A DNA stretch of 63,263 nt, filler included, from Dugesia japonica (lineage: Eukaryota): NCBI GenBank assembly GCA_001938525.1. It is 6 parts of 6 records of this genome, joined end to end, with 100 filler letters (N's around TTAATTAATTAA, not from the genome) between each part and the next. Parts side by side here need not be neighbours in the genome. Positions count along the whole stretch, not along the records: positions 1 to 8,995 come from MQRL01592610.1; 5 more parts are not named here. One strand, given 5' to 3'. Positions 1 to 23,017 of this stretch are shown here, one piece after another. Under the pieces are notes generated by a model. It saw only the letters and a list, made by a program, of their open reading frames with translations, made no database searches and was not told where the DNA came from. Position 1 is the first letter of the stretch; every line of letters begins with the position of its first letter. The position numbers were made by a program, and so were the translations under genes.

Positions 1-509
1 GTCCATTATGAGCTATTGGAACCTGGTCAAACAGTTGATTCTGTATTCTATTGTGATCAACTTGAAAGATTAAAGCAAGCGATGAAAAAAATCCGGCCAG
101 GTTTAGTTAACAGAAAAGGTGTCGTGTTCCATCACGACAACGCTCGACCACATACCTCTATAATGACTCGCAACAAATTGAAANNNNNNNNNNNNNNNNN
201 NNNNNNNNNNNNNNNNNNNNAGTCCAGACCTAGCACCGTCGGACTACCATTTGTTTTTGTCTCTGCAAAATTTTCTTAATGGAGTTACCATGGCCTCAAG
301 AGAGGACTGCGAAAGGTACCTGGTACAGTTCATCAACCAGAAATCTCAGAAATTCTACTGTGACGATATTATGATTTTACCAGATAAATGGCGAAAGGTG
401 ATCGAACCAAATGGAACATATTTAATTAAATAAAGTATATTTGTTATATGAAAACAAATTGTTTGTTTTTTACTTAAAAAACCGTGGAAACCTTTTAGAT
501 CACCTAATA
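1..509 (+). mobile_element. Mariner (DD34D) transposon, 3' part of transposase plus right TIR
   Basis: Translation shows HHDNARPH, then SPDLAPSDYHLF (agtccagacctagcaccgtcggactaccatttg at 221) and LPDKWRKVIE. A TIR-like end ggaaaccttttagatcacctaa is followed by TA. Confidence 0.92.
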
Positions 510-659
510 TTTCACAAGTAATTGGTTTTTAAATATTACTAACAAAACTTGATTTTTGAAGATCGCCGCCACCTTTACAAAGTTTCATGTGTCTGGCTTT
601 ATTTNNNNNNNNNNNNNNNNNNNNNNNNNNNNNNNNNNNNNNNNNNNNNNNNNNAACAA

Positions 660-774
660 AACTTGATTTTTGAAGATCGCCGCCACCTTTACAAAGTTTC
701 ATGTGTCTGGCTTTATTTTTTTTAAGAGGGTTCTATGACATTTTTCACATGTAAATTTTATTGACTTGGTCATT
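660..774 (-). pseudogene. Small C2HC zinc-finger ORF of the virus-like element
   Basis: Minus strand reads MTKSIKFTCEKCHRTLLKK/NKARHMKLCKGGG with one frameshift in an A-run. The ATG directly follows the capsid stop (TAAAATG). Confidence 0.5.
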
Positions 775-2004
775 TTATTTATTTAAAAATTCAACACCTC
801 TCACATTTTCAACCATTGCAATTTTATTATTTGCTAATTTNNNNNNNNNNNNNNNNNNNNNNNNNNNNNNNNNNNNNNNNNNNNNNNNNNNNNNNNNNNN
901 NNNNNNNNNNNNNNNNNNNNNNNNAACATTATTTATATTTAATCTATCATCTTGAGCTGTTACATCAAAACAGAAAATTGGATATAGTTCACCAAATTCT
1001 TGAAGAGATAATTGAGGTTCTATGAAAAAGTCTTGGCAACATTTTATATAATTTAAATAAGGATAAATCATTTCATTATTTGTCATATCAAATTTACATT
1101 CATTAATTGGATAGTAATTGTTATTTAACTGAATTTGCATAGTTTTTAAATAAAATGTTTTGGTTACATTTTTGCATCAACTTTTGTGGTTTTTGTTTTC
1201 TTTTGAATTAATAAATTATTATTATTTGAAAAAGAAATAACTTCATCTTTTATTACTATAAAAATATATCTTGGTTTATATGAAAGATTGCTAATTTTAT
1301 AAGATGAATAATTTCCAGAATCTAATGACATTTTACCTGTTATTCGATTTAGAAATCCAACTTTAATTGGTTTGTCTGTTGAGATTCTTTCTAAAAGCAT
1401 TAATTCCATTTTAGGTGTTAATCTACATTCTGGGATGTGTAATTCTAATGTTAGCAATTTTATTTTTGGTGTGCCTTCCCCTTTAAATAAAAGTTTATCT
1501 TCTAATTGTCGATTGCAACAAAATTCTATCATTGTATTAAAATTTTGTATGAATCCAAATAAAATTCTTAATGGAAAATACCCTTCAAATTTTTTACTTT
1601 TGTATAATTTTTTTCTTCGGTCTTCATCTAAAACCCATCCTGATAATGGTCCATATATTTGTCTATGAAATAAAATTTAAAATTGTTGATATTGTACCAG
1701 GATCGTTAAAAATTTCTACATCTGGTGCTCCAAGTCTTAATCTCATTGTTTTAAATAAAGACGGAAAAAAATTATTTTCCAAGACTGCAGTTTTATCGGC
1801 TTCATTTTCTGTTTCTATTTTAAAATATAACATTGCATTACAAATGTCTAATGGATTGGTGGATTGTAAAGATTGAAAAAATATATCTCCTCCACCCATC
1901 ATATTATTTATTGAACCGGATGTTGGTGAAAACTTTAAAATATCATGTTTTAATAATACATGAGTAAAAATAATATTATTATCGAGATTTATTTTGGCTT
2001 CCAT
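775..2004 (-). pseudogene. Double-jelly-roll major capsid protein (Polinton/adintovirus/PLV-like), interrupted by stop/frameshifts
   Basis: ORFs 1663-2004, 1164-1532 and 775-1140 join into a ~400 aa protein with LENNFFPSLF..MRLRLG..PGTISTILN, FEGYFPLRILFGF, LELHIP, KPRYIF, QLNNNYYP and LYPIFCFDVTAQ. This matches the motif order of invertebrate DJR capsids. Confidence 0.8.
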
Positions 2005-2199
2005 TTTCTATAGTAATTTTTTAAAGATCTTCTAATAATTTTACCATCTCGTCTGCTCCTCTCCATTTTCTTTTACATTTACCATCACCATCAACAATTA
2101 GCATCACTATTCCAATTCACCCTACTATTCCCATTACAATTCACCCTAATATTCCTATTACTATCCCCAACCTCGTTAATAATAATTTTTTTAATAAGG

Positions 2200-2393
2200 G
2201 GGTTTTTTTCAACTCTATCTTCTAATGAAATAAATCTTCCATTTTAATCTCTTTCCATTAAAGTTTTTGTTGTTCTTTTATTGTAAGGAATTTTTAATTT
2301 AATTAAATATGTTTTTATTGTTTTTTCATTTAATGAATGAAGTTTAAAAAAATCTTTTATTGAATTTTTTTTAAAATTATAATTTTTCATCAT
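2200..2393 (-). pseudogene. Small HTH-like protein, copy 1 (..YLxxLxIPYNK..R.xNGRF family)
   Basis: MMKNYNFKKNSIKDFFKLHSLNEKTIKTYLIKLKIPYNKRTTKTLMERD*NGRF. Homologous to 17887-18207 and 15052-15340. Confidence 0.6.
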
Positions 2394-2937
2394 TGTGTGT
2401 AAAATTGTGTCAGGAATTTTTTTATAATTTTTTAGCTGTTGCTCTAGTTATACTTGTACATGTTAGTGGGACTTTCACACGTTTAGATTTTTCTGTAATT
2501 TTTTCTTTCCTTTCTAAATTATTTTAAAAATTTATAATCTCCTTTTGTGAAAGGCGCTTTCTACCTTCTTTTAATGCAAATGAAAAACTCATGTCTTTAT
2601 ATTCCTTTATTATTTTTTGTTTTGTTTTAGAATTATTTATTAGATCTGCACACGCAACATCCATCTTTTGTGAAATAAAAATTGCTGCTAATGATTTAAA
2701 CGCATTTTTATCTTTTTCTATTATTTTGTTTTCATTTTCATCTACTTTTGTTTACATATTTCTTTTAAATAACCTAAATTTTCTTGTATTATATTTTTTG
2801 TTAATTTATTTTTTCTATATTCTTTAATTTTATCAAAATTATTTTCTTCAATTAAATTATTAATTATATCTAATAAAACATTTAAATCTATTTCTTTTTC
2901 TCGCATCATTTTCTAAACAAAAACATCAGAGAAGATC

Positions 2938-3192
2938 TCAAAGATCTTTTGCAGTTCTATATTTTATACATCTTCTTCGTAAATTAAAATTAAAGTCTTC
3001 ATATGTCATCTTTTCTGGTTTAAGATTTTTATTTAATTTTTTTAATCCTGCATTATGTTCATCTCGCTTTTTTTGTGCAATTTTCTTTAACTCACTATTT
3101 CTTTCAGCTAAAACTGTGGCTATCTCACCCTTACAATCTGCATCTAATAATGCCCCAAAAGAATTTGTCGCTGCTGGTTTAAATAATTTCAT
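2938..3192 (-). CDS. Hypothetical basic protein of the virus-like element
   Basis: 84 aa ORF co-oriented with the capsid. Its C-terminal TYEDFNFNLRRRCIKYRTAKD motif is shared with the ORF starting at ~3535. Confidence 0.45.
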   Translation of the reverse strand: MKLFKPAATNSFGALLDADCKGEIATVLAERNSELKKIAQKKRDEHNAGLKKLNKNLKPEKMTYEDFNFNLRRRCIKYRTAKDL

Positions 3193-3764
3193 TTCTTTTT
3201 CATTTATATATTGTTCTTCAATTTTTTATGTATTTCATCAAGACATGATAAATGTTTATTTACTATCTCCACCGTTATTTTATTTTTTTATAACTTTCAA
3301 TTTCATTTAAATATGCGGCTTCTGCACCTTTTAAATTATTAAATGTATTAAAAACTGCTTCTAGCCCAACCACATTTTTTTCATTGTCATTTTTTTAAGG
3401 AATAATTTTAATATTATTTTTCTAAAAATTCTGAAGTCTCTTTTGCCCCTCTCCATTTTCTAGTTCTTGGTTGTAATTGAAAACCAAACTCTTCATAAGT
3501 TAACTTTTTTACAACCTCTTTTTTTCGCGCTTCCATTTTCTAATAGAATAATTTAGTTATTAAATATTTTTGTTGTTGCGTAGAAACCCTGGTTTTAGTT
3601 TAGTTTTTTCCAATACACTAAAAATATGAAAACTAGTAACATGGGTTTTTAAAATTAATCTCACAAGCAGCTTCAGATTTTGCACATTTAGATTCAATGT
3701 CATGACGGAAAATGCGCGATTACATTTTTTACATTCCATTTTATAAATGAAAAATTTCTCATTT

Positions 3765-4015
3765 TTCTCATTTTTCATAAAAAATGAAATTTTTCATTTT
3801 TCATAGTTTATAAAAAATCCCACATTTTCATTTTTCAAAAAAAATTGGAAATCGGAAAATTTTCATTTTTCATAAAAAATCAAAAATCGGAAAATTTTCA
3901 TTTTTCATAAAAAATCGAAAATCGGAAAATTTTCATTTTTCATGGTTTATAAAAAATCACGCATTTTCATTTTTCATAAAAAATCGAAAATCGGAAAATT
4001 TTCATTTTTCATTTT
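3765..4015. repeat. Subterminal tandem repeat, ~35 bp unit aatcggaaaattttcatttttcataaaaaatc(a/g)aa
   Basis: Several adjacent near-identical copies just inside an AGTAG terminus at 4064. Confidence 0.85.
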
Positions 4016-4029
4016 TTTTACCTTTTTAC

Positions 4030-4064
4030 CTTAGGTCGCTTATCCCCGGTTATATCCATCTACT
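4030..4064 (-). mobile_element. Polinton-type terminus (5'-AGTAGATGG...)
   Basis: Minus strand starts AGTAGATGGATATAACCGGGG, next to the tandem repeats and the capsid gene cluster. Confidence 0.5.
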
Positions 4065-7000
4065 GTTAGGGCATGTCACCATTTCACAAGTTTTACCCAA
4101 TATCTCATCTTTACTTTTACCAAAGAAAGCTGATGAAAAGGAAAGTAAATAACGCATAATGAGAAGATTATCTCTTGAGTTTATATTTATAAATTGGAAG
4201 CTTATTTTTGAGGGATTTCAATAAAAGAATTCTAAATTTGTTATGATGAAGATCAACATATTTTGTTGACTGAAATATTGATTACATTATTAGAAGAGTT
4301 GAAAACGTTCATTGTTGATTTTAAGGAGTTTTTGAATTCATGAAATATTTAATAAAAAATAAAGATAAAGATTTAATTTGTTTGTTAAAAAATACAACTT
4401 TGAATTCCTTAAAAAACAAATCATTTTTTGACAATCTTAATTTTATCAACTTTATATTTATTAAATCTGTAAAAAGCAATGGCAATTGCCTAATAAATAA
4501 AATTACTTTATATTCAAATAAAATTCTTCATTATTATAGAGATAAAAACATTTTTCTTTGAATATAAAATAATTTCTTTTCATTAAAAAATTTTTATACT
4601 TTTTCAATTTAAAAAATTAATAATTATAATTATAGTCATCTTATATTCAGTATAATCTCTTTAATCTTTGTTTAAATAATTTAGACTGAATAAACTCATT
4701 TTTCCCCATTTTTTTCTGATGATGAAGGTTGATTCATCGAAATATATAACAATAAATATTTATATTTATTCTTTACATTTAAATCTATTTTTTTATATTT
4801 AATACTTTTATTTAATATTTTATTTAAATATTTATTTTAAAAGGTTTATTTATTTATTTTAAAAGCAGTTGACAAAGAGAAATACAATATAAGTTTTGTA
4901 AGTTTCTAGATAAACTAAATCAATCTTAGTGGAAATTGTTCTCAAAACAAAACATTAAATTTATAAATTATTTTTTATAAAATAAGTTGATATTTTTAAC
5001 TAATTTAATAAAAGCAACTCTATTTGTCGAGAAAAAATTTAATTGAAATATCAACTTTTACTACCTGCTTACTTTTAATTAAAAAAAATTCTATTAATAA
5101 ATGAAATTGACTTAAAATCTTTCTTTTATTTATTTGTAAAAATTATATTCCATTAATATTTAGTTAATAATTTCCCTAATTAATTAATTTACTCAATTTT
5201 TTTCATTTATATTTAAAAATATTTTTTTTGATTAACCTCCATTCAGATTATTAAAAATATTCATGATTTGTTGACAGAATAACAGCGGTGTTTTCAAAAA
5301 AAAAATTACGAAATTTATTTATAAATTCCAAATTAATTTTTTATAAATTCAGGAAATTAAAATAAATTGAATTGCCTGTATTGTTCTTTAAATTTTCAAA
5401 GGAAATTCAATGAAATTAGCTCTAATGCTTGTAATGAAAATCATCTGATAAATATATATTATTGAATGAGTTCATAAACATTTTTATAACAGTAAAATGT
5501 TGAAAGTGATTGCTAAACAATATTTTAAATAAATAATATTTTAAATAAACAATATTTTAAATAAACAATGTTTTACATAAACAATTTTTAAATTTTCAAA
5601 TATTAACAAACCAATATGAAAAATATTTTGTAGAAAGTATAAATTTTTATCATATTATTTATTTATTAAACATTGAGAAAATAAATTACGCTAAAATTTA
5701 CTTGTCAAAATGTAAAATTTGTAATGAATTAATTGTAGTGCTATTAATAGTTTGTCTTGATCGTCATAGTTATACAAACATTCGTAGATCTAAACTGAGA
5801 ATGCACCAGCATTCAATAAATAAAGCTCGAAAAATATCATAAAGAAAATAAATGTATAATAAATATAGTTTTAAAATTTTGTGTGTGGAGAGACGACGTC
5901 ATCTTTTTGTTTAAATGTATCAAAATTAGTGATTCATGTTTAAATGAAGGGATTTTATGATTTTTGTTTGAATTCAGTTGAATTAATGACTTTTTGTTAA
6001 TTGATGTTTACGATTTCTGGGTTAAACTAAAAACCTTAACCGTTTTTAAGGTTTTCATGAGTTTGCTTATTTTTGTTTAAGTTAACTAAAGGTTTTAATT
6101 TTTTAAAGTGAATTTTCCACGGGCAATATTAACAATAGATGCATCCAGGCAATATTAATACAATAAGCAATAACATACAAAAAGCAAATCAAAACACGAA
6201 ATTTATTGACGATAATAACAGTCATTTCATTATAGACTCATAGTCATTTCAATTTGGATCTTCATTGAATATCGAATCTTAATGAAAATTAATAATTTCA
6301 AATAACAAATAAATTTATTACCTTACATTGATTGGACTGAATCAGAGCCTTATTTATTACAAGTCAAAATTTAATATGTGTTGTCGGTTATAAAGAAGTC
6401 AAAATAGAGTTTCTAAAATATATGTTATATCAATATAACATCATCGGCTTCTATATATATTGTTTTAGAATCCATCAGTCTTGGAGATATCTAAGAAAAT
6501 ATATTATGGGACTAAAACAAATAAATCAACGTACCTGACATGCACTCATACAATCAAACATAATAAATTTATACGAGCGTTGAGAGATGATTGTGTAATC
6601 ATCTCACAATGTCCATATGGAATGGTAGAGTATTTATTTATCCATTCTATTTTATCGTCATTGTTACCTTTGTTGTTCTAAAACTATCCAATTGAAATCA
6701 TTATAATGTGTTCAATTTTTGTGTCATGAAATACAATTTTAGTGTAATGGATATTGAATATTAAATTTTGATTTTCTATTAATTTTTAATGTTTGGTTTA
6801 GAATCCAGTGTGATGGATTATAATGTTAACATTCTGACTATTAGATATTAAGTGCTGACTGTTAATTCTTATATTTCATTAAAATAAATTAATAGGTTCA
6901 ATCAAATTAAATTGTGGTTTTAAATATATTCAAATTTTCGATGATTGTCTTCTTCAGAAATATGATGACTTTTTGATGGATTTAATAGATAGTAGAACAT

Positions 7001-7923
7001 TGTTACAAAATTGTTTATATTTTATTAAAATTTTATTGGTTTATTTAAAATATAAATTTTGTTTTAAATTTAATCTCAAAATTTTTAATTAAATTGAAAT
7101 TTTTTAGATGTTAAATTATTAAAATACAACTAATAATTAAATATCTAAAGATTTTCCATTTAATTAATTATTTTGTCTATCCATTGTCTAAAGAACTTAT
7201 AATGAAAAATGCTTCGTTCAGGAAATAATACACAATTGTATAATTAATAATAAATTGTAATTATAATTAAAATAACAATAACTGTTAAAACATTTTTATA
7301 CTTTTAAACTCATTATATATTTCGGAAAATATTCATTCAAAACTTCTGAAAATACTCCCTAATTATAAAAATTATGAAAATACTCCCTAATTATGAAAAT
7401 ACTCCCAATTATTGTTACCAACGGAATCTAATTAGCCAATGTTACCAAATATAATATCAAAATCTTGTTTAAAGTTTTCTATTAAAATTTTCAATAATTA
7501 TTTTCTCGGTGAAGAATTATCACATAAGGTTGAATTTCCTATCAATATTATTAGAATTAAAGGTTTTTTATTTGTTGTATATGATTTGTTATATAAATAT
7601 AAAATATAAAAGTACTAAATAAAAAAGATAAAGGTACTAGGCATTGGATCACTTTAACTTTGGCCATAAATTTTCTCAGTCAAAACTAATTGTATGAACG
7701 AAACTAGTGTCATTAAACTCAAAATTAAAAACTATCTATATATTGTCTAAAGGACTTTTAGCTAAAACTGCTTGATTCTCAAAATAAATAAAAAGGATTG
7801 ATTATATCAGAAATTATAATTTTAATTTAAAATCATAAAAATCAGAATAAAAAACTGTTTAAATATTGCTTAATGAACTACTATCAAAAAACTATAAAAA
7901 TATTTTCACGTTTTTCTATCATT

Positions 7924-8240
7924 AGTAGGTAGATAGTAGCGCACTAGATCATCCCCCCTAGATAAAGAACTTTTATAACAAAGAAGATGAGTCATAAGTA
8001 TGACTAATCGGAGACTAGAACAAAGTCAATGACTCATCGGGATGACTCGTCGATGATTAAAAACAAAGGCGATGACTCATAATGATGACTCATCACTGAC
8101 TAGAACAAAGACAATGACTCATCGATCATGACTCATCGATTTTCTAGATCATGATTAATCGATTTTCTAGATCAATATGACTCATAGTTTTTTCTAGATC
8201 ACGACTCATCGTTTTTCTAGATCAGAGTGACTCATCGATT
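7924..8240 (+). mobile_element. Polinton-type terminus with subterminal TGACTCA array
   Basis: AGTAGGTAGATAGTAGCGCACTAGATC start, nearly identical to 31049. Contains 8 exact TGA(C/G)TCA plus about 4 variants. Confidence 0.65.
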
Positions 8241-9038
8241 TTTTAAAAAAAAATTTTTTAGCATTTTTTTTTCTTAAAAATTTTCAAAATTTTTTTTTAT
8301 TAATTAAACAAATAAAGAGAAACAAAAAAGTCTGTTTAAATAAACATTTATTAATAATATAATTACATTAATTTCTTTTAAACACAGATGTCAATATTGT
8401 CATAGCAGCATATTTAATTCTTCTTCGTGTCTCCAATTTATCTTTAATTTTCTTCGTGAATACTGATCGGACAATAAGTTCAACATAGTCATGTTTACTC
8501 ATTGGACCATTATCAAGCTCGGTTAGGATTTGAATTTNNNNNNNNNNNNNNNNNNNNNNNNNNNNNNNCAATTTCTTAATTTCTTTTTCCAAATAATTCA
8601 TGTTGAGAATAATTTTGAATTATAAAATAAAATTTATTTTACGAAAACTGCTGCTTTTATACTTGCTAAGATACATACATACACGTTATTTGCTAGTTTA
8701 TATTAGTTGTTACCTTTTTGTAACAAATGCTTTGTTTAACTTGCTGTGGTTTTGCATTAATGTTGCACTTAAATATATTAAACAAGGAATTACTAATCAA
8801 AATATATTAATAATCAAAGTAACACATTTTCAAACAATAAAATAAATATATACAAACTTTAATTGACAACATTTAGTATAAAAGCTAAAACATTTAAAAA
8901 ATTTTCATTATTTTCATATGTAATCGGTTGTTACTTTAACAAAAAATAATGTTATGTCTATTATAGTAGATTATGGAAAACCTACTGAATTTCATNNNNN
9001 NNNNNNNNNNNNNNNNNNNNNNNNNNNNNNNNNNNNNN

Positions 9039-9052
9039 NTTAATTAATTAAN
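9039..9052. other. Artificial contig linker TTAATTAATTAA inside an N-run (also at ~22962, ~35574, ~43953, ~54082)
   Basis: An identical all-frame-stop 12-mer is flanked by N runs five times. Confidence 0.95.
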
Positions 9053-10098
9053 NNNNNNNNNNNNNNNNNNNNNNNNNNNNNNNNNNNNNNNNNNNTTCCT
9101 TGAAAAATATAATCAAATAAATAACATGTTTGAAATGATTATAGAATTTACAAATAAAGTTTAAAACATGTACAGTTTCAGTTAGAAGAGTAAATGTATA
9201 TCCGAACTAATACAATAATCAAGCTTGTTATTATCAATAAACAACAGTCCACTGTATTAGATATAAACAATTTGTAACCGGTCAATCAACCTCACACCCC
9301 AATTTTTTACATGTAAACAGAATTCTTAGATTTTGTACCATCGGGTAAATTTCAATTTAATTTGTGATGCAACCAATAAAACTGAATTTACCGAAGTATT
9401 ACGATGAAAATNNNNNNNNNNNNNNNNNNNNNNNNAAAAAAAATAACATGAAATAATTTTCATCTAATTGAATTTAAAATTTAATTACAAAACACAAATA
9501 AAATTCAACTTGGATACTTTGCGCTTGACAACTAAGTTTACTATCTGAGGAAACTCATCGAAATCCTCCGCTCAGGACCTATGCTGGGTGTAGACAAACG
9601 CATGAAAACGATTGTAGAAATACTCATGAGAATAGAAAATATTTCATTCCCCATATGTCGAACTTAGAATTCGACGAAAACTCTTTGAAGGCCTTCTACG
9701 AGCGATTTGACTTTTAAAAACAGTCTTTAATCACAGTTATGTACTGTGAGAACTCTGCAAAATAGCGTTGAGGAATTTAATAGAATACTAATAAGAACTC
9801 AAAAGGGATTAATGTTTCAAAGGCACGATTCACACTTATGGATAAAGCGGAAATTATCAATAGAAATTTTTATTATGTGTGGCGAAAATTTAGAGATTGG
9901 CTAATAAAATTATTATTCTACAAATTAATATTCAAATGTAGGACAAGACTTTACAGAAATTTTAATCTCAATGAAGATTTCTTAATGAAATTTGGGAATA
10001 ATTAATGCAAAACTTTCAATTGTTACGTTGCTAGAATATATGTGCTTTGCATGGGGTGCAAACGAGACAGGTGCTAGGCGACATACATAATTTTATAG

Positions 10099-10391
10099 CA
10101 GTGGTTCTTAATCTGGGGTGCGAGAGAAATTTCAAAAATTAAAGAAATACGAACGAGACGACCGTGTTTTCTACAAACCATGGTACACACCAACATGTCA
10201 CACCCAATTCTACACTATCTACTGTCTCTCAGCACATCACCAGTTATATGGTGATATGTATTGTAAATTTATTCATTTGTTAATGCAATGATTTTTCTTG
10301 NAATAAANANTAAAACACATTTTTAAGCGGGGGCGGGAGCTTATTTCAGACTCAAGGGTGAGCTGACCACTAATAAGGTTAAGAACGACCG
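10099..10391. mobile_element. hAT (Buster/Charlie-type) MITE
   Basis: TIRs cagtggttcttaatct / aggttaagaacgaccg. Flanking 8-mers ttttatag / ttttataa form a 7/8 TSD. Confidence 0.75.
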
Positions 10392-10624
10392 TTTTATAAC
10401 TGCTATAACTTAATGGAATTATTTTATACACACAAAAACATACAAATAAACATCGTTCGACGCGAACCACATTTCTTGAATCAATAATCAAATGTTGAAA
10501 TTGATAACGAAGAGTGTTTTAGAACATTTTTTAATGACCATCGTTCATATCAGCAATTAAATAAATTGTATAAAAAATTCGCACAAGATTTTAATAAATT
10601 TGGAATAAATTGACCGAAAAAAGT

Positions 10625-11600
10625 CTAGACGATTAAACTACACTTGTCAATGAAATTATAACCATCTATATTTTCTCCAGGTTTGGTAATCAAAATGGTT
10701 TTATAATCCCTCCAGATATCCGGAGTGCAACCAGTTTCGTAGATCTTGGAGAATAGGAAGTAAAGAATACTAGCAAGTGGGTCTATTTTTTCAAGAACTT
10801 TGTAGTTGATTTTATCTTGTCCAGGAGCAGAGGAATTGGAGGTATCTTTGAGGACATCAAGGATTTGAGTCTCGGAAAGAATAGCAAATAACAACAACTA
10901 CGAATTCTCTATCTCCATCAAGACCCCCAAAGAGAATCTAAACGTATAGCAAACTAACTACAGGAAAACTTTGTGCCCAATGCGACAAAGAAATGCGACT
11001 GGCGGAACACTTTGCAAAGCTATTTAGCGTCCCGCCTGGCTGCCGAAGAACAATAGTGGATGAGAATGGATAACGGACATCCTTACCTGACACCGTTTGT
11101 GATGGGAATACGGTCAATAACGTTGTTGTTTATGATGATATTAGTGTAGTTTTAATGGTAGAGATTCTTAATTAAGTTAATGCCAAAATTATCCATATCG
11201 TGTTTAGAGAGGATTTCAGTGATGTAGTGGATTGAAACATTTCCAAAAGCATCCGAGATGTCGAGGACGCAAAAATGGAGGTTGGTTTCATAATTTTTTG
11301 CCTTTTCGATAAGAGACAAAGCGAGGTTATGCTCTGTACAGATTTCAGCGGGGCTACAGCATTTTTGCTTTCTGTGTAGGAGATTACTTGAACGAAGCCA
11401 TTCATGAAACTGGTTGCATAAGCCGACTGTGAAGATTTTGTAAGTAGTGCTTAAAAGTGCAATTGGTCTCCAGTTTTCAATAAAATTATAACCATCTATA
11501 TTCTTTCCAGGTTTGGGAACCAAAATGGTTTTATAAATCCTCCAGATATCCTGAGTGTAACCAGTTTCGAAGATCTCGGAGAATAGGAAGTAAAGAAAAC
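10625..11600 (-). mobile_element. Non-LTR retrotransposon RT fragments (RLE-type, R2/R4/NeSL-like), rearranged
   Basis: SAPGQDKI, NWRPIALLSTTYKIF, QK...CTEHN, LDISDAFGNV and GVR*GCPLS. The segment ~10645-10770 is duplicated at ~11475-11600. Confidence 0.85.
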
Positions 11601-12229
11601 CAAAAAATGGTGTAATTTTCTATATTGACAAAACTGTATGAAAAAAGACTTCTCAAAAGCTTGCTTACAGTTTTAATTTTAATTCACTATAAAACTTACG
11701 AAACAACAACTTAGTACTCGCTCTTATTGTTACATGGCATCAACTCGCAGTCTCTATTTACCCAAAGTGATTACTGAATGATAACACAAACATCCATTTT
11801 TCGATTTTTAAAAGAACGTTAATTGTTTTCACTAGGGCGGTTGCCTCGCTCTAACGCCGAGCCTGGGTGGAAAAGTAGTTCTACAGTACTATTACATACG
11901 TGAAATTAATTGCACATTAAATAATTTGGATTCATTAATCATATTTTATCGTACCTGATAAAAATCCACATATTTTTATATTAGTTTTTTTTAAAAAAAT
12001 TTTTCTAGTTAAAGCATAATTTAACAAAGACCGGTGAACTTTTTCGGACGAGTAGCGCAAATGTACTTTAAAATAATAGTGGAAGACTAATAATTGTGAG
12101 CGTGTGATAGATTAATGAAGGGGAACCTTTAAAATGATCCAGCAACAAGTTCAACTTATTTAACATTTCTCAATGTGAATTGGGAAAATTTTTGCAGTGT
12201 AGTTTGCAAGTGAATAACCCCATGGAAGT

Positions 12230-12620
12230 GGAAGGTATTGAAGACAACAGCCAAGAAATAGTTGTGGAAATAGACGAAAGTAAATTTTAGTGGCCGCCAG
12301 GACATTTGGTATTTAGTGGAACATGGTAGCGGCAAATCAGTGACAGATCAGCTGAGACTCTATTTACAATCGTACAGAAATTTATTCTACTAGACAGCTT
12401 CACATTAACCAATCAGATTGTAGGTGTGGCGGTTATCATAACTTTGTCAATATGATTAGTAAACCATTCCCAGAACTTCTTTGATACGAATGATTTGGAT
12501 ATCAATACAAGAAACGTTGACAACTTGTGTATGCGGAGTAAACGAAAACTACGGCAATTTGCAAGTGTGAAGGTCTATTTCCATCATCATACATGCTCGA
12601 ATTCATATGTTCGAGTTTCC
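12230..12620 (+). mobile_element. Merlin/IS1595-like transposase remnant
   Basis: VVEIDESKF (gttgtggaaatagacgaaagtaaattt at 12261), GHLVFSG and RSAETLFTIVQKFIL. Confidence 0.7.
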
Positions 12621-13574
12621 AAGCGCAACTGATGTAAATTGACCAGTCCCGACATGTCCAAGAAGATTTGTCATAGTTTGATCCATGGGCGTATAAATCA
12701 AACATGTTAATTACTTTTTAATTGTCGTTTATAAGCGTGTTGTAGAAAAATATGCCACAACTCATCAACCGTGTTATACGAGGTTTTGGTGTATATATAT
12801 TGAAAATTCGAGCTGACTTCAACTAACTAAATGCGTTGTTGTTATTTTACACACTTTATTATTATATCTTTCTTGGAAAAAGCAGGTAAACAGACTCGAT
12901 GCCGACAAGAGCTGTAGCTATTGTTACGTACAACCAAACAATGTCAAACTGCTCTTCGAAACCTGAATCTTTCTAATAGATCGTTGCAAATACAAACACT
13001 TGTAAGAGGAAAAGATTTCTATTTTTTTTAGGAATGCATTCGCAATCATTTCGTTCTTAGCTATCGAGAAGACGATTTTGGTTTTTTCGTTACTTTCGTG
13101 AACTGATAAGTGTTTATAAACTATTGAAAAGTTATATTTTTGTGACAAAATCTTCGTTTCGAGAAATTCTAAGTTTTTTGCATATTATCTAATTCGCAAA
13201 TTTGAAAATGTGAAGATGGCAGGGTCTATTGAGAACCGGCAATGTGGAGAGGCCTCGTAAGTAAAATAGCATAGGGCCTACCATTATCTAAATCCGAAAC
13301 TGATTGCACGACAAATTGAATAATAATTTGAACTTTATTGTGGCTGTCCTTTAATTATGTCAACAAAATTTGGAGTTGAAGAAGTTTGACAATTATTGAC
13401 ATAATTAATCAACAGTCCCTTATAAAGTTTAAGTAGAAATATCTAGATTAAATAAAGTTTATAAACATGTAACATAATATCAATTAATACTGAGATAATT
13501 AAAAATTTTTCTATCTAGCAAGGCAATCAATTTTCATGAAACTTTTAATTAATAATTTATAATATAAAACTTAC

Positions 13575-14264
13575 ACTTTTATGCAAATCCATGATATCCT
13601 CATCGATTATTTCGATAATTTCATCAAAATATTTTGTATAAAGAGCTAACTAAATAAATAACTGAATTTATAACTGAAGCACATTTTTATATACTTGAAC
13701 TAAATTATTATGAATTGGAGTTAGTTCCTTATTGTCTTTTTGAAATTTATTTAAACCAGCAATAATAGTTTGAATGCCTTTTAATGGCAATGGACATTGA
13801 GGTATTTTTTTGCAAATTTCTTGAATCATATTTAAAACTAATAATGAACAATAATTTTTTAACATTTTAAATCTCCTTACAAAATTTATAATATGTCCTG
13901 ATTTGATTTTTACAACATCCAGATATAAATTCATTAATTCTATCTAATAAATCATTGAATTCGGGTAATTCTGGTGAATACTGACCTATCTTGTGAAATC
14001 TATGCAAAAACATAATAAAGAATTTACTGATAAATTTATTACAGGACATTAGCATGGACTATGGAATAATCTTTAACATCTAAATCCTGTAAAAGAATAT
14101 CTAAATTTAATAAATGAGTACGAAATAACTCAGAAGTTTCATCAAGCAATGAAGCTATTTCTGAAACATCTAAATTTATTATTAGAAATTTCACAATTTT
14201 AAAATATTATAATCATACTCCCTCTTTGCTTAAAAGCATTGCACAGATTATTAATGGCAAGCAT
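13575..14264 (-). CDS. COPS3: COP9 signalosome subunit 3, 5' exons (14264-14219, 14169-14043, 13999-13881, 13837-13695, 13649-13575)
   Basis: Spliced translation LLNLDILLQDLDVKDYSIVHANVL..PLKGIQTIIAGLNKFQKDNKELTPIHNNLVQLALYTKYF..DEDIMDL matches the CSN3 N-terminus (LDVQEHSL; PLRGI..LTSIHADLCQLCL). GT-AG introns of 43-49 bp keep the frame. Confidence 0.85.
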
Positions 14265-14687
14265 ATTTTCAAAATATTTTTGAAAAAGATAATTAATAAT
14301 AAGATTAAACAAAAGTCCAATTTCTAATACTAAAATGAATAATAAAATATATTTTTCAAATAATAAATGTTCATTATCAATATAGAAAATAATTATTTTA
14401 AATATTTTCATTGTTAAAAAATTGATATAGTTTTGAAATAATTAATTTTGCAGTATAATAAAAAATTATCTTTAGAAATTTAAATTTAAAATTTCTAAAA
14501 ATTTCATTTTGCTATAAATTCAAAATGCTTTCCTGGCATTCATGTTAAAAAGTAATATAATTTCATTTTGTCTAATTATTAATAGTGGCCATATGATTAA
14601 GAGAATACATAGTGTACATGCTTGTTGTTACATTCTGTATTGTATTATTGACTAGGCAGGGTTAGTCAAAATGTGGTTTAGTTGGAT

Positions 14688-14862
14688 AGTAGTGTATACA
14701 TTGAGGAATTATGGTCCCCACCCTCCAGTAGGCCATAAGATAAAACAATCCCATCGAAAATAAGAGGGATGTCATGTAACTGTCAATTGAAAATTGTCCG
14801 GGATTGTCTGATTCTTTAACTTTGGGAGGTGAAGACCATAATTCCCCAATGTATACACTACT
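14688..14862. repeat. 175 bp foldback with AGTAGT termini
   Basis: agtagtgtatacattgaggaattatggtc ... gaccataattccccaatgtatacactact, with an inner IR acaatccc/gggattgt. Confidence 0.85.
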
Positions 14863-15051
14863 CAGAGCTTTATTGAAAACATCATGATTGGTTGATCGTT
14901 GATCGTTGATCTTTTATAAATAAAAATATGTTGGATTAATACTAAATATTTAATATTAGTTATAGATAAAAGGTTTTATTAGTTATTGGTTAATGCTTAG
15001 TAGTTATTGCTTATTGCGTAATGTTTTATTGCTGATATCCATATGGAAGTG

Positions 15052-15340
15052 TTATATATTGAAAGTATCTTTAACAATTGATAGAAAATCATCACTAGAC
15101 ATTTTAGTATAATTAATAAATTTATGTTTATGATTATGTTTATGTTTAGATTTATGTTGAATAGGTTCTTTCTTTTGAATAGGTTTAACTTCAATAGGAT
15201 CTTCAAATCGTTTTATTAAAGAGGAAAATGTTCCATCAACACTTCTATTTTTCTTGTTGTATGGAATATTATACATGTTTAAATATTTTCTTCTTGATTT
15301 TTCATTTAAATTGTATTTCTAGAAAAAACTAGATACATAT
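15052..15340 (-). pseudogene. Small HTH-like protein, copy 3 (5' end interrupted by a solo LTR)
   Basis: VSSFSRKYNLNEKSRRKYLNMYNIPYNKKNRSVDGTF..VKPIQKKEPI, homologous to 17887-18207. Confidence 0.55.
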
Positions 15341-15345
15341 TAATT

Positions 15346-17696
15346 TGTTGGGGTTCCATCTAAGTGGGTTAAAATTAATTTTTGTTTAGGATGGTCTGGT
15401 CTAGTAAAACCCTGCAAAGAATTTGATCTAGTATCACGAAAACTAGATTTTCGGAATAGAGCCGTTGACTCTCAACCCGTAGTTAGTGTACAGACTCGCA
15501 TTCCTTTGGTTTGGGTTCTGATTTCATTATACTCGCTTTAGGCGGTGAAGCGTGCTTCATCCTTATTGTAAATGATGACCACGACAGTATTTCGAATCAT
15601 ATCATTATATCTGGTGGTTATTACCCTCAGGAATATCATCTTAGCAAGCTATCAAAAAGGTATTACGAGAGTTATGTCTATTATTTTTATTAAGATTTAA
15701 TATCGAGGATTATGAAAAAGTGAGTTTATTATCATCATCCTAAGGTTCTGAATTCATAGTTAGAAATCATCAGTATTCATCATGGTAATTAGTTAAGCCT
15801 TACTAACATAAGTTAATATTGATCATTAATCATTATTGACTTACACCCCTACAAGGGTCAGTTATTCAATTATTGCTAAAAACAGGAACTACCCCTATGA
15901 AATAGTCAGAGTTTATTAGAGAAACTCATTATGATTATCAATGTTTATCAATNATTAAGGATCAATTTTATAATTCTTGTGGTCTAGCATTATTACCTAA
16001 TGAATTATTATTAGGAGAAACTACTTATTATTGTCATCATTAACTATTATTATCATACTTATCCCAATTACTATTTTTACGGTTTTAACAGTTTTTACAT
16101 TACTAATTAAGAATTGCTTATTCCTGTCTATCTTAAGAGAAAAGTAAATTTCATATTATAATTATAATTTATCATTAATAAATCATTATAAACGTAAACC
16201 ATTAATTGAACAATTACTATGATAAATGATTTATGGGAAATTTTAATTAATATCCTTAATCAATGGAAATTTATTTACCATTACGTAATGTTTGAATAAT
16301 TACCATTCTATTACAATTACCAAAAGAAATTCGATTACATAAAGTTTTTATTATTATTACTAAAATTCTTTTAAACATTAAATTGTAGAATACATAAATT
16401 ACTAAAGACTTAAGTAAGCCATCGATAGTCCGGATTAAGCACTTGATTGATTTGTAGTTGCTATCGCGATTTTATTGTATATATCCAACTAACGACTGAT
16501 GTTCTTTATTCTATGCATTCGTGTGCAACTATTCATCCACTGTGCACTTGTACGTAACTATTTTATTTTTGTGCATTCGTGCGTAACTATTTATCTTCTG
16601 ATTAATTCAATCGATCATTGATGCATCACTTCGGTCTGTCAATACTCACACACCTGTGAACTACTAGTCACCTTATGATTATTCTTAATATTTATCGCTA
16701 TTTGACATGCAAACTGTTCCCTTTCATTTTCCCACCTGTGCTGTTTTTACCAAGTCGGAAATCGTTGTTGAAAAATAAAAATTAGATAATTTCTTACCGC
16801 TTCAAAATCGATAATTCCAATTGTTAATATTTGGTAGAAATTTTATGATTATTGATGTCTAAAATTAAGCGGTATTTATACTAAATTTCAGCACGCCTTC
16901 TATCGTCTCATTGGCCAATGCACATGCTCTGATTTTAATTGTGTTTTCCTTGGACAAGATACTCAAATTCTGTCACCTGACTTCTTATTATTAGACAAAC
17001 CTTTGGAATTCCAAAATTAGTGGAATTTGATTGGTTAATTTTAAAATCCTTACAACTTCTTTCTTGATCTAGCCACGGTCTTCTGGTTTAAATTTTTGAA
17101 ATCTCTGATTTTTTTCTTAACTATAACTTTCTTTATTACTAATTTTTGTCTTAACTTTAAGCTTTTATTTTTCGATATTTCTGTATAAATTAAATTTCTT
17201 TTTTATAATAAATTATTTTAATTCATATAATTTATTTTATTAATAAAATAAATAATTTATTTTCTTTTCTTCTTAATTTACTAATTGGATTGTCGATCTT
17301 CATTTTTAAATTGAATATAAATTTTATTCCGCCGTTTTCTTTTAATAATTAATTCGTTAAATTATTTTTCTTTTTCTTCGATTATTATTTTCATTTGGTT
17401 TTCTTTATTTCACCTAATGAATTGATCGCTTGGTTATTGTTTGTAATTTCTTTGTTTTCTCTATCTGTTGATAGTTTTTTTCGTTTCTTTTCTTTTCATT
17501 TACTAAATTATTCCTTTTTTTCTAGCATTTTTTAGTTATGGCACAGGTTTTAATTTTCTTCTCATTTCTTCTCCAACTAATTTTTCCCGACCATTTATCA
17601 GCTAGATTCTTTCTTTCTCTTTTTCATGTACTTTTCTCAACTTCTGTCTTACTCATCGCCATTATTATTTCTTATGCTAGGTGTTTTACCCTAACA
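15346..17696 (-). mobile_element. Long solo-LTR-like element (~2.35 kb)
   Basis: Ends TGTTGGGG...CCCTAACA, flanks AATT/GATT. The minus strand has CCAAT and TATAAATA at ~16870-16920. Both ends and the promoter block are homologous to 59812-61427. Confidence 0.7.
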
Positions 17697-17886
17697 GATT
17701 GATAAAATCATAAGAAGATAAAATTTGATAACATTTAAAATCTGTGGTATTCATTTTGTTGCATTAATAATTTGACCTTGTTACCATACCTATAATTACC
17801 TTATTTTACAGTACAAATAAAATTTTCTATTTCTTTGAAAAAATCTTCATTTGCTGTGAAGGAATTATTTTCAGAAATAGGTAATG

Positions 17887-18207
17887 TTACATCTTTATGT
17901 TAATGTTTTTAGGTTTAGTTAGACGTTTAATTGGTTTCTCTTGAGTAGGTTTAACTTGAGTAGATCTTATTAAAAAAAATGTAAATCTTCCATTAAAAGT
18001 ACGTTTTTGTTTAATAGTTCTTGTTTGTTTATTATATGGAATATTAAGTAGATTTAAATATTTTGTTATTATTTTAACACATATTCCATGTTTTCTAGAA
18101 AAACTAATTAGAGAATTATTAATAAAATTATAACTCTTGAGAAGCTCATGAAACTCTTCTTCCTTTAAAAAATAAATTAAAAGACATTTAAATAATAAAT
18201 ATTTCAT
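17887..18207 (-). CDS. Small HTH-like protein, copy 2
   Basis: LLKSYNFINNSLISFSRKHGICVKIITKYLNLLNIPYNKQTRTIKQKRTFNGRF. Divergent from the capsid copy 2 cluster. Confidence 0.6.
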   Translation of the reverse strand: MKYLLFKCLLIYFLKEEEFHELLKSYNFINNSLISFSRKHGICVKIITKYLNLLNIPYNKQTRTIKQKRTFNGRFTFFLIRSTQVKPTQEKPIKRLTKPKNINIKM

Positions 18208-18934
18208 GTTCCGTGTTCCGTTTTCCGTATTCAGTTTACAGCTCAGTTTTTTTGTTCGGTTTTCAGTTCTGCGTATAGTTTACTATATACAATTCGGTTT
18301 TTAGATTACAGTTTCTTATATTTTGTCTAGAGAAAATGGCAAGAAAAGAATTAACATTAAACACGTTATACAATTCAATAAAAAGATTAGGGAAAACTTG
18401 AACAGTTTGGTATGAAAGAAATTCAAGGATTTACTAAATGTGAAATAACAGCTAATAAATACATTTCAATTTTAAATATTATGAGTGAACAAATGGTCAA
18501 GTATCAAAGTATTGTGAAATTGATTGTTATAAACGTATGTTTAGTTTTTTAAACAATGAAAATAAAAACAATGCTGTAATTATTAAAGAGTTATATGAAC
18601 AATTACAAAAAGAACGAGATGAACAATATAAACTAAGACAACATACAATTAAAACGAAAAAGAAAATATTGATGAAGTAATGTCCCTAAATATAACCTTT
18701 TATATACCAGATGATGAAGATGATTTATTAACAGAAAGTGAATATAAAAATATAGCTAATATTATATTGAAAAATAATAAATTACAAAACAGGAAGAACA
18801 ACCTTTTAAGATGTTCCCAAAAAATACGAAGATAAAGTAAAATGTATTAGCGCAGCAAAAAAAGATTATATAGAATTAAAAGTTAAATAAAGTAAATCTA
18901 CAATATAGGGCTCGTCATAATAATCCAATAGAAA

Positions 18935-19480
18935 ATGGAGTTAGAAGCGAATAGTAAATATCTTCACTTTCAAAAAAAAGATCTTTTGAAAATTAGTCCT
19001 ACTAGTGGTTCGATGGTAAATTTATATAAATCAAGTAAAATACAATTCCAATCATTATAATCTACTAATCCATTGGATATAGGAAAAAGTATGTTGTATA
19101 TCAAGAGTGAAATAAAATATACTACAAAACTAAATAAAGATGTAACCCTTGCAAATGATTGGTTTCCTAGTTGGTTTAGTAGCATGAGATTAAAACTTGT
19201 ATCTACAACAATTGAAAGTATAGAGAACCCTGGAACAGTTTCTACAATGTTGAATTTAATTTTACATCATGAATCTTCAAAAGCATTTACAAATGCATAT
19301 GGATAGATTCCTGATCATGATTTAGGAACAGTTGATGATAAAAACTTCAATAAAAGAAAGGAACTTTATTCACAAAGATATGAAGGTTATTATTCTCTTA
19401 GAAATTTGTTTGGTTTTTTACAGAATTATAATAAATTACTATTTAATCTTTTATTCAGTTGGATTTTAATATAAATAAAC
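18935..19480 (+). pseudogene. Double-jelly-roll major capsid protein copy 2, N-terminal half
   Basis: MELEANSKYLHFQKKDLLKISPTSGSM..FQSL*STNPLDIGKSMLY..LANDWFPSWFSSMRLKL..NPGTVSTMLN..YEGYYSLRNLFGF aligns with the 775-2004 capsid. Truncated by the Gypsy insertion. Confidence 0.8.
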
Positions 19481-19485
19481 GAGAT

Positions 19486-22400
19486 TGTAAGGATTCAAAA
19501 TTTAAAATTGCAATTTAAAGTTTGAAGAAAAAAATGTTAAAAAAGATTTCAATAAATTTTTAAAAATATTAAAAAACTTTGTTTAAATATTCAGCCTTTA
19601 AAAAACAGTTTTTTTAGATTTGAAGATTTGAAATTTCATAAATAAATCTTTTTTAAATTTAATGGACTTTTCAGAAACTTTATCAGTAATTAATATGGCG
19701 ACCAACGCTTCAATTGACTTCATTTGAGAAGCTCCACACCCTGGTATTTACCGGCATGTTGAAGATATTGAACAGTTTATTAATGGTTCCACCAAATACT
19801 TCGAATGTATTGGTGTAAAGAAAAAGGATAAAAACTTCTTGATGATTGGCTTAATTGATCGAGAATTAAGACAAAAATATAAATGCCAAGATGAATTATT
19901 AGATTTTGAGGACCGACAGAGAAAAACGTTCCACAAAAAGACTTCTCTCATACAAGACTTGGAGAAAGCTTTAAAATACAAGAGAACGGATGAACGCGTT
20001 TATGTGTACAAAAAATGATTTTAACACTGGTTGATAAAATCTTTTCTCACAAACTAGACAAAGAATAGATGACAAAAGAATTAATATTCAATAGATGCCA
20101 CGATAAAAGGATGCAAATAAAAATTAAAGAAAGCAAATTAGCCAACTCGGAAGAGATATTTGAAACAATGAAAACAAATGATGAACTAAAGTAGGAACTA
20201 AAAGAAACGGACAATATAAATACGGTAGAGAGTTACACCAATGCAGTAAAAGAAAGCATGATAAAAGAACGTTTCTCAATAGTTAACCGAACTCAAAATG
20301 AAACTAAAAAAGAAATTACATGTTGGTCATGTCTGAAGATAGGTCATATCAGCAGAGGTTGACCCGAAAAGAAAGGAATGTGTTACGCATGCGGATCAGA
20401 GAATCATATAAGAAGAAATTGTGACAAAATTAGATATTCAAGATGTGAAAAAATGGACATCATACAGAACAATGTTATACTAATTTGGAAAAAAGAGGTA
20501 AATAGACTAATGATAGAAGACTTCAGAATAACAAAGAAAGAAACGAATCAGCATTATACAGCCGAAGAGAGGGAACAAACAAAAAATAGGACGATAATAA
20601 CAGATTCCCGAAACAAAAAAGGATGACATCAACCAATATTGAATTCAGGGAAAGAGACGGCAATAGAGATACAAATGCAATGGTAGAAGAAGATAAGGAA
20701 TACATTATGAGGAGATAATATTTATTATTACGATGAAGAGACAAACAGATATAGAGAAGAGACCCCAAACAGACAAGCTCTATCTAAAATCAAGATGATT
20801 GGAGCAATGAAATTAAAAACAATTCAGATCGCGATATACTTATGTAAAGTAAAAGTAGTTTAATTAATAGTATAAAACATGAAAGTAAAGAGGAAAGAGT
20901 AGACAGAAAAGTTTATGCGTTTTTAAGAAAAATTACAGATATATGTATAATACAGATATCAAGACAATGTAAGAAACAAGAAATGATGATAACAGAATAA
21001 TGGTATTAGAAGAGAATAAACAAGTACAAACAAATTATGATAGAACGCAAGGTAGGCCCAGTTTAGAAGTTAGAATTCAAGGAAGATATATGGACTGCCT
21101 TTTTGACACAGGTGCAAAAATAAACGTGATGAATCTAAATATATTTAGAAGTCTTACAAATGTGGAGCTGATAGAAGCTGATGACGTGTTAAAATGTGCA
21201 AATAATAGCAGTATAAACCTTGTGGGCGAGATATATATAGAAGTGAAAATCGGAGACAGTAAAAAAATAGTTCATTTCACCGTAGTGGAAGAAATGAGTC
21301 CGAATCTTGTTGGAGGAATAGACATGCCATGCCAGTTTGGATACCGTTTAAAGAAAGAAACAAAGGATGGTGAAAATGAACAGTAGATCTGTAACATAGA
21401 CGCAAGGTTTGGTCGCAAAATTGAGGATTTTGAAAGAGAACAGAGAGCTTTAAGAATTTTGATGAAAAAACGAGACCAGAAACTAGAAAAAGGTAATAGA
21501 ACAACATCGAGGAGTATTCATGGCAGATAACTGGTATGTCGGATGCACAATAGAGGTAGAACACAAAATAGTGAAAAAGGATAACACAATAAATACGAAG
21601 CTTTGAAGACAACCAATGAATCAAGAAGAAAAAATGGATACGCCACAAAAAATTTAGCGGACGCTAATATTATAAAAAAATGTAATTCGCAGTGGAATAC
21701 ACCACTGAGTTGCGTCTGAAGAAAGAACGAAAGGATGTGAGACTTTGCTTGAACTTCAGGAAACTGAACGCAGTTACGGAACGACATACCTTACCTATGT
21801 TAAACAAGGAAGAAATGTTAAACAATTTGTATGGATCTAAATATTTCAGTACCATAGACTTGGGAAACACGTATTAACAGGTACAGTTAAAAAAAGAATC
21901 ACAAGAAAAAACAGCCTTTTCGACAAAAATGATAAACATTGCTTCACAAAAATGCCAGTCGGCATAGCAGCAGGTACATTTCAAGAGCTTATGACGAAAG
22001 GATTGAACGGTCTAGATAGAACAATGGTGTATATGGATGACATAATAGTATTCTCAGAACTACTAAAGAGCATTATTTAACTCTGGGTCAGGTATTAGAG
22101 CTGATTCAAAATGCAGGGCTGTGAGTGAATCCAAAAACATGTCACCTATTACGCAAAAAAGTAAAGGTTCTTGGTTACATAATAGATAAAGAAGTAATTC
22201 AAATAGATCCAATGAAAATCGTAGCAATCAAGAATTTTGAGAAACCCAAATGTGTAAAGAGCCTGAGAAGCTTCCTTAAAATATGCAATTATTACAGAAG
22301 ATTCATCAACAATTATTTAAAGAAATCAAGAAGCCTAGAAAAATTATGTGGAAGCAACAACATCAAGTTAATATGGTCAGAAGGATTTGAGAAAGATTTA

Positions 22401-22853
22401 GCAGAAATGAAACAAGCACTGAAAGAAGCACCTATTCTAGAATTCCTGGATATAAAGAAAACATTTACTTTAGATACTGACGCCAGCTTCGACGCAATAG
22501 GAGTGATCCTATCACAAAATGATGATGAAGGAAGAGAAAAAGCTATTGCATACTGTTCGCATGCAATGAAATCACATGAGAATGGTTACTGTATCACACG
22601 GAAGGAATTACTAGCAATCTACTACTTCTGCAATCACTTTATACATTATTTATATTGAAAAAAATTCATAATGAGGACAGATCACAAAAGCATAGTATTC
22701 ATGAAAAAGACGAAAAAACTGATAACACCTCAGTTTCAGACATGGATGAATTACCTTAGCAGCTTATACAAAAAAATCATATATCGACAAAGTAAGAAAC
22801 ACGCTGATGCAGATATGCTTTCAAGAATAAAATACGGAACGTGCACTCTGTGA
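19486..22853 (+). mobile_element. Ty3/Gypsy LTR retrotransposon (gag, protease, RT, RNase H), decayed
   Basis: PBS-like tggcgacc at ~19696, CCHC knuckles (CYACGSENHIRRNC), protease LFDTGA, RT CLNFRKLN / IDLG / YMDDI, RNase H LDTDAS, ELLAI, TDHK, ADMLSR. Confidence 0.93.
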
Positions 22854-23017
22854 GGTAAATTAAATAGACAGATTGATTCGGGGAATTTTTTTGTGGCAAA
22901 TCAATAAAAGAATAATANNNNNNNNNNNNNNNNNNNNNNNNNNNNNNNNNNNNNNNNNNNNTTAATTAATTAANNNNNNNNNNNNNNNNNNNNNNNNNNN
23001 NNNNNNNNNNNNNNNNN

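Follow-up and report, generated by a model that had tools for sequence, protein, structure and literature searches.

A decayed arm of a probable Maverick/Polinton element, with a predicted double-jelly-roll capsid, in Dugesia japonica

Introduction

Mavericks, also called Polintons, are widespread across invertebrate genomes, and most of their copies are fossils. The described systems closest to the locus reported here are the group 2 Mavericks, or Alpha adintoviruses (Polintoviricetes; PMC8502044; bioRxiv 10.64898/2026.06.19.733378). The locus lies in a stretch of 63,263 nucleotides from Dugesia japonica (GenBank assembly GCA_001938525.1; six parts joined end to end), referred to below as the window, which is AT-rich, transposon-laden eukaryotic DNA. 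Positions 658-4064 of the window very probably form an arm of an integrated element of the Maverick/Polinton type (group 2, Alpha-adintovirus-like) that is broken and present in multiple copies. The arm comprises a terminus with tandem repeats, an accessory block, the gene of a predicted double-jelly-roll capsid and a zinc finger that likely opens a cut-off integrase gene. It is assigned to a known kind of element because the terminus is a true one, the capsid has the predicted fold of large DNA viruses and an integrase gene likely begins with the finger.

The element in the window and the Alpha adintoviruses are alike in the predicted double-jelly-roll capsid, an AG-starting terminus and intronless, tightly packed genes. 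Its relatives in metagenomes also have the protein-primed polymerase pPolB of the PF03175 type, an rve integrase, an A32 ATPase, pX-, protease- and penton-like genes and a parvovirus-type phospholipase A2 (PLA2), as do Alpha adintoviruses. In the latter, PLA2 is joined to a pX-like domain (PLA2X; PMC8502044), whereas in one relative, contig L002, it lies between a zinc finger and an integrase and pX is separate. Published elements carry PLA2 either joined by pX or in a gene of its own. A further difference from the Alpha adintoviruses is that the six accessory open reading frames (ORFs) of the window match nothing tested.

Vertebrate Mavericks share with the window a 6-bp terminal motif starting with AG, an accessory region between terminus and core, and a predominance of degraded copies, but their motif is (AGT)2 or (AG)3 rather than AGTAGA and their gene order differs (PMC8097293). 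The Repbase elements Polinton-1_SM, Polinton-2_SM and Polinton-1_HM are likewise capsid-bearing Polintons of large AT-rich invertebrate genomes, a likeness by description and not by sequence; they are listed with major capsid protein, penton, ATPase and protease (PMC4028283, supplement 1). The family described here may already stand in Repbase. A study of invertebrates found Polintons to be routinely targeted by piRNAs (PMC8532177). Polinton-like viruses (PLVs) mostly lack pPolB and the rve integrase, and their capsids are barely similar to those of Mavericks (PMC11161782; bioRxiv 10.64898/2026.06.19.733378).

Terminus and boundary of the element

The arm ends at position 4064 with the 9-mer AGTAGATGG, read on the minus strand, which occurs once in the whole window. 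The host's runs assemble to 678-933 million letters, and in all three public DNA runs compared the read depth dropped 4-10-fold outside this terminus. Summed contig depths in the bins 3930-4069 and 4070-4209 were 355 and 42, 258 and 26, and 123 and 31, respectively. The fall in depth at about 4070 means that the repeated element ends at the 4064 terminus. The AGTAG end proposed in the initial annotation is therefore a true boundary, and the 35-bp subterminal repeats claimed there form an array at 3777-4012. The first six bases, AGTAGA, fall between two of the published vertebrate Maverick end types, (AGT)2 and (AG)3 (PMC8097293).

The capsid gene and its relatives

The capsid gene runs from 2004 to 775 on the minus strand. 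It spans 410 codons over three frames; the frame changes near 1670 and a second time between 1200 and 1149, and an N gap covers 841-924. An intact relative, P0001 (431 amino acids), was the one longer protein found among 76 candidates with the capsid's first piece. The pieces of the window's gene are 60%, 44% and 42% identical to P0001 over residues 11-430 (E 2e-93). P0001 matches the Pfam family PF21738 (DJR-like_dom) with an E-value of 2e-25, above the curated cut-off.

The structure check proposed for the capsid was run on P0001. A model built with 26 relatives had a predicted local distance difference test score (pLDDT) of 87.5. Its top solved matches in Foldseek were the capsids of mavirus, iridovirus, PBCV-1 and Sputnik (E ~1e-15, template-modelling scores 0.55-0.64), double-jelly-roll proteins with which it shares the predicted fold at ~10% identity, a kinship of fold only. 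A second structure comparison agreed. No PDB sequence match was found for the capsid, even by profile. The window's gene is accordingly predicted to encode a double jelly roll, a property carried over by homology from P0001, and in this respect it has the capsid type of a Maverick, with the fold tested on the intact relative.

The capsid family is large, with 28 close proteins and 679 cluster representatives at an E-value of 0.001. All 28 close relatives came from metagenome or read assemblies, and the 36 cluster members listed carried three names only, all 'hypothetical protein'. Six short motifs were not found in the available part of the supplement of PMC8502044. A tree of 39 rows was built on N-terminal pieces: the first piece of the window's capsid, 34 selected proteins and four locus capsids, with near-duplicates and most distant matches left out.

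Gene context of the relatives

A metagenome scan yielded 25 capsid-bearing loci out of 315 candidate stretches. The ORFs of the 10 loci longer than 1.9 kb were examined, and for three of these loci (L001, L002 and L004) a total of 15 ORFs were scanned against Pfam. Contig L004, whose capsid is 52% identical to P0001, carries a 1403-amino-acid pPolB (PF03175, E 1e-10) and a weak match to an adenain-like protease (Peptidase_C5, E 0.046). L014 also carries a pPolB. L002 has an A32 ATPase (Pox_A32, E 4e-10) and a separate pX-like gene (Adeno_PX, E 9e-4). Penton-like genes were recognized in L002 and L004 by eye, by comparison with supplement 3 of PMC4028283; they had no Pfam match. Judged by these similarities, the contigs jointly hold what PMC11161782, PMC8502044 and bioRxiv 10.64898/2026.06.19.733378 define as the core of Mavericks.

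The integrase genes of two relatives adjoin the capsid. In L002, an intact ORF of 441 amino acids (5191-6513, minus strand) consists of a zf-U1 zinc finger, PLA2 (E 3e-12) and rve (E 6e-13). The same series occurs in L001 at 1562-2353 (plus strand), in one frame with one in-frame stop; its PLA2 and rve share the strand of the capsid and lie downstream of it, which is also how the finger lies in the window. The combination of PF03175-type PolB and a PLA2-bearing virion module that marks Alpha adintoviruses was seen across L004, L001 and L002, with PLA2 fused to the integrase and not to pX, but not in the window's element. Within the literature covered, which was partial and included PMC3671162, PMC5803895, 10.1101/2024.03.25.586562 and 10.1101/2023.08.22.554363, no fusion of zinc finger, PLA2 and rve was found. 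This fusion is the unusual trait of the group: it is intact in L002, interrupted in L001 and, by analogy, probably present in the window's element. In L002, an Endonuclease VII/HNH-like gene lies between capsid and integrase (4586-5188, plus strand; PHROG E 2e-14).

Other collections gave little. Scans of IMG/VR yielded no locus with P0001 (0 of 3 stretches) or with the capsid alignment A1 (0 of 173); with the L002 integrase, one of six stretches was confirmed and no locus was obtained. A scan of prokaryote genomes gave 1 of 40, on a 2.5-kb contig.

The zinc finger and the integrase link

A zinc finger follows the capsid gene, its ATG (773) lying one base past the capsid stop (777-775), and it is split across two frames. 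The second piece ends in GGDLQK, the linker that joins finger and PLA2 in L001 and L002, and it matched the integrase N-termini of these two loci better than 2000 of 2000 shuffles in each case. A GGDLQ-type linker behind CxxC was present only in L001 and L002 among 26 loci. The C2HC finger noted at the capsid stop is thus where it was said to be, and by sequence comparison it most likely opens an integrase gene and is not an accessory gene. Of the rve integrase, the window's element retains only the N-terminal finger and linker, the catalytic domain being outside. After the finger come an N gap and a duplicated 64-mer, probably an assembly artefact, and about 30 bases further a mariner transposon; the remainder of the element would lie beyond the window's edge. 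The features of the arm and its inner border are collected in Table 1.

Table 1. Features of the arm and of the sequence at its inner end (window positions).
Feature	Position	Strand	Remarks
Element terminus	4056..4064	-	5'-AGTAGATGG; depth step ~4070; Maverick-type end motif
Subterminal tandem array	3777-4012	.	Period 35 bp, 6.9 copies, 77% matches, score 262
CxxC ORF	3560..3739	-	59 aa; family not found
ORF2	3414..3536	-	40 aa; TYEEF...KWRGAK motif; family not found
ORF3	2938..3225	-	84 aa from Met (3192-2938), 95 stop to stop; TYEDF...KYRTAK motif
55-aa ORF	2742..2909	-	Weak, doubtful likeness to accessory gene of Maverick contig L004
75-aa open frame	2524..2751	-	Family not found
Interrupted three-helix gene, likely helix-turn-helix	2091..2447	-	First ORF 2447-2244
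Major capsid protein pseudogene	775..2004	-	Three frames and N gap; predicted double jelly roll via intact relative
Zinc finger and GGDLQ linker	658..773	-	Two frames; truncated; likely N-terminus of zinc finger-PLA2-rve integrase gene
Exact duplicate of 655-718 (100%)	541..604	.	Across N gap
Mariner transposon, 3' part	1..510	+	Pfam Transposase_1 E 2e-7; Maverick sequence stops here

Accessory genes

Between the repeats and the capsid lie six small ORFs, and the frames of the minus-strand genes listed at the outset (a CxxC ORF, two proteins with a common motif and a helix-turn-helix-like protein) are all present. Most ORFs of the arm are fragments; breaks run through the helix-turn-helix-like gene as they do through the capsid and zinc finger genes. 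None of the six had a Pfam match at the curated cut-off, and none of seven element fragments had a PHROG match at an E-value of 0.05. The best Pfam match of an accessory ORF, Rotavirus_VP1 (E 7e-4), was sub-threshold and was rejected. The claim that these genes do not resemble the standard Maverick set holds in that they match nothing tested. Mavericks normally have accessory regions with varied ORFs beside their core genes (PMC8097293), and unassigned small genes alone therefore do not mark a new lineage.

ORF2 and ORF3 have in common a C-terminal motif of 23 amino acids (52% identity, E 7e-8; 0 of 2000 shuffles), by which their C-termini are judged paralogous. The motif had been written as TYExF..K[WY]RxAK; its presence in both proteins stands, while its spacer is nine residues long and not two. 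For ORF3, no homolog was found among proteins of 51-165 amino acids, nor a match in the structure atlas. The 55-amino-acid ORF shows a weak and doubtful likeness to an accessory gene of L004, with an E-value of 0.001 pairwise and of 0.17 against all loci. The 5' part of the CxxC ORF is common to many more copies, the depth in bin 3650-3789 being ~2100 as against 270-480 in the adjoining bins (DNA run X1).

By tblastn, the helix-turn-helix-like gene is homologous to sequences at 18207-17890 (E 1e-9) and at 15336-15055 (E 7e-5). Three helices were predicted for the homolog at 18 kb, with pLDDT 86-89 over residues 21-60. It had no Foldseek match at an E-value of 0.001; its best matches were helix-turn-helix domains at background scores (best Z 5.3 in VIA; atlas 0.82-0.85), which serve as leads only. 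The gene likely encodes a putative DNA-binding regulator.

The window holds nine copies of the 9-mer AGAAAATGG, where base composition alone would predict ~0.7. Six of the nine copies fall in two Maverick segments (four in this element, two in a second one described below), and four of these six are on clear gene starts. A third 'KWRG' peptide (2104-2021) was rejected as a relative of the ORF2/ORF3 motif: it resembled ORF2 and not ORF3 (0 and 1155 of 2000 shuffles), and it may reflect the DNA motif AGAAAATGG rather than a protein.

Copies and transcripts

In run X1, 4463 contigs aligned to positions 430-4600, which take in part of the mariner: 441 at 99% identity or more, 1020 at 95-99%, 1823 at 90-95% and 1179 below 90%. 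Summed contig depth, which is not copy number, reached ~7,000-26,000 in the capsid gene, as against ~200-900 for the greater part of the accessory arm and ~40-70 in the flanks, with peaks within the accessory arm at the start of the CxxC ORF and the core of the helix-turn-helix-like gene. The pattern points to numerous capsid copies that have diverged and to a smaller subfamily that has the window's arm. About a quarter of a poly-A RNA run was read; it gave 43 reads, none at 99% identity, and 86% of them continued into unlike sequence.

Weighing the explanations

Several points weigh against the assignment to group 2 Mavericks. The six bases AGTAGA have no exact match to the common published motifs and belong to none of the three vertebrate types (PMC8097293). 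Domains of pPolB, ATPase, penton, protease, PLA2 and rve were all missing from the window's element in a Pfam scan; the capsid is its sole core gene, catalytic genes being otherwise absent from it, and fragments of pPolB (26.0-26.5 kb) and integrase (39.2-39.6 and 45.7 kb) elsewhere in the window are unlinked to the arm. Neither an opposite end nor a target-site duplication was found within the window. The integrase link amounts to about 24 residues, and taken by itself the finger's first piece falls short of significance (shuffles match it in 180 and 55 cases of 2000). In the capsid tree, the window's capsid groups with P0001-5, 7 and 20 at 90/93 and with L001 at 83/85, neither strongly supported, and its closest relatives come without known gene context. 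Also, no one relative contig carries all core genes.

The initial annotation favoured an undescribed lineage of PLVs, distinct from Mavericks and equipped with a separate set of genes. The six accessory ORFs without a curated Pfam or PHROG match, the lack of any homolog of ORF3 among the proteins searched, and a set of close capsid relatives drawn entirely from metagenome and read assemblies, with no informative names among the cluster members listed, would fit such a lineage. However, whereas PLVs (Aquintoviricetes, Gosseviruses) mostly lack pPolB and rve, the contigs with related capsids carry both, together with an A32 ATPase and pX-like genes, and the last gene of the element itself matches the zinc finger-PLA2-rve integrase. 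Because these contigs hold the Maverick core (pPolB PF03175, rve, A32 ATPase) and the finger is most likely an integrase start, the proposal is unsupported; it is largely refuted by gene context and finger match, and is considered very improbable. A Maverick-derived family that is non-autonomous or variant, with capsid and integrase, that lost pPolB by deletion or has a helicase in its place and spread with the help of autonomous elements, is improbable too. The window holds no linked pPolB, group 2 Mavericks often replace this gene (bioRxiv 10.64898/2026.06.19.733378), and the very uneven depth of capsid and accessory arm in run X1 places the window's arm in a small subfamily. Nevertheless, pPolB is present in the relatives L004 and L014, and its absence here is uninformative because the element runs into the mariner and off the window's edge.

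The stretch might also be a chimera of assembly joins or nested fragments, the AGTAG end and the small ORFs being foreign to the capsid gene. N gaps and the duplicated 64-mer mark its inner end, no contig of the DNA runs spans it, and depth differs strongly among its parts. Against this, 925-4064 is gap-free with genes tightly packed on one strand, a second capsid copy (18.9 kb) likewise has a helix-turn-helix-like homolog within 1 kb, and AGAAAATGG recurs in both elements. A chimera is regarded as extremely improbable. What was first described as one arm of an integrated dsDNA-virus-like element remains so, with its Polinton-type end and predicted double-jelly-roll capsid; the locus is read as a decayed group 2, Alpha-type Maverick rather than a separate PLV lineage. 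The window's own copy is a genomic fossil, and the capsid protein cannot be made from it.

Proposed mode of action and significance

From the relatives and from established Maverick biology, an active member of the family would replicate as linear DNA copied from its termini by pPolB. The A32 ATPase would load this DNA into capsids formed by the major and the minor jelly-roll proteins. Integration would be carried out by the rve integrase, which in the clade of the relatives is fused behind a zinc finger and PLA2. The fused PLA2 may act in membrane penetration, by analogy with the proposal made for PLA2X (PMC8502044). A more specific and rather tentative idea, on balance somewhat doubtful, is that the window's element belongs with its relatives to an unannotated Maverick clade, so far seen in metagenome and read assemblies only, with small regulatory genes of its own, in which the integrase and the zinc finger-PLA2 part ahead of it would travel as one virion protein that couples entry to integration.

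Since most Maverick copies are fossils, one further broken arm is ordinary. Among the records consulted, no member of the capsid clade bears a name, yet the clade is abundant in this host, which provides a genomic anchor for orphan metagenome capsids. If general, the zinc finger-PLA2-integrase fusion points to a way in which Maverick particles might deliver the integrase, a matter relevant to the debated existence of infectious Maverick virions.

Other elements in the window

A second, divergent Maverick fragment lies at 18336-19470 (plus strand), with the 5' half of a capsid gene at 18935-19470 behind short broken ORFs; this capsid copy is 47% identical to the first in amino acids and 59% in DNA. 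The helix-turn-helix-like gene at 18207-17890 (minus strand) lies beside it in divergent orientation. The fragment ends where a decayed Ty3/Gypsy retrotransposon starts (19500-22900, plus strand; zinc knuckle, protease and RNase H matches). A 175-bp element at 14688-14862 has inverted ends of ~31 bp, AGTAGT...ACTACT, the canonical Maverick end motif; a 6-bp target-site duplication was not seen beside it, and it is possibly a miniature non-autonomous Maverick. The third helix-turn-helix-like copy (15336-15055, minus strand) adjoins it.

An isolated pPolB fragment at 26012-26476 (plus strand; PF03175, E 1e-7) is 31-35% identical to the pPolBs of L004 and L014, and fragments of Maverick-type rve integrases occur at 39203-39708 (plus strand) and 45654-45782 (minus strand). 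As candidates for the missing remainder of the element, these pPolB (26 kb) and integrase (39 and 46 kb) fragments were rejected because they lie on the wrong side of the terminus. The 39-kb integrase fragment is flanked by a 138-bp inverted repeat (37824-37961 and 40608-40745; 90% complementary, 2.6 kb apart). In addition, the window contains a non-LTR reverse transcriptase fragment at 10300-11620 (minus strand; RVT_1 E 5e-7) and probable host exons at 41512-41766 and 36706-36894 (minus strand) and at 54709-55792 (plus strand), with matches to a protein kinase and a ClpX-like AAA ATPase.

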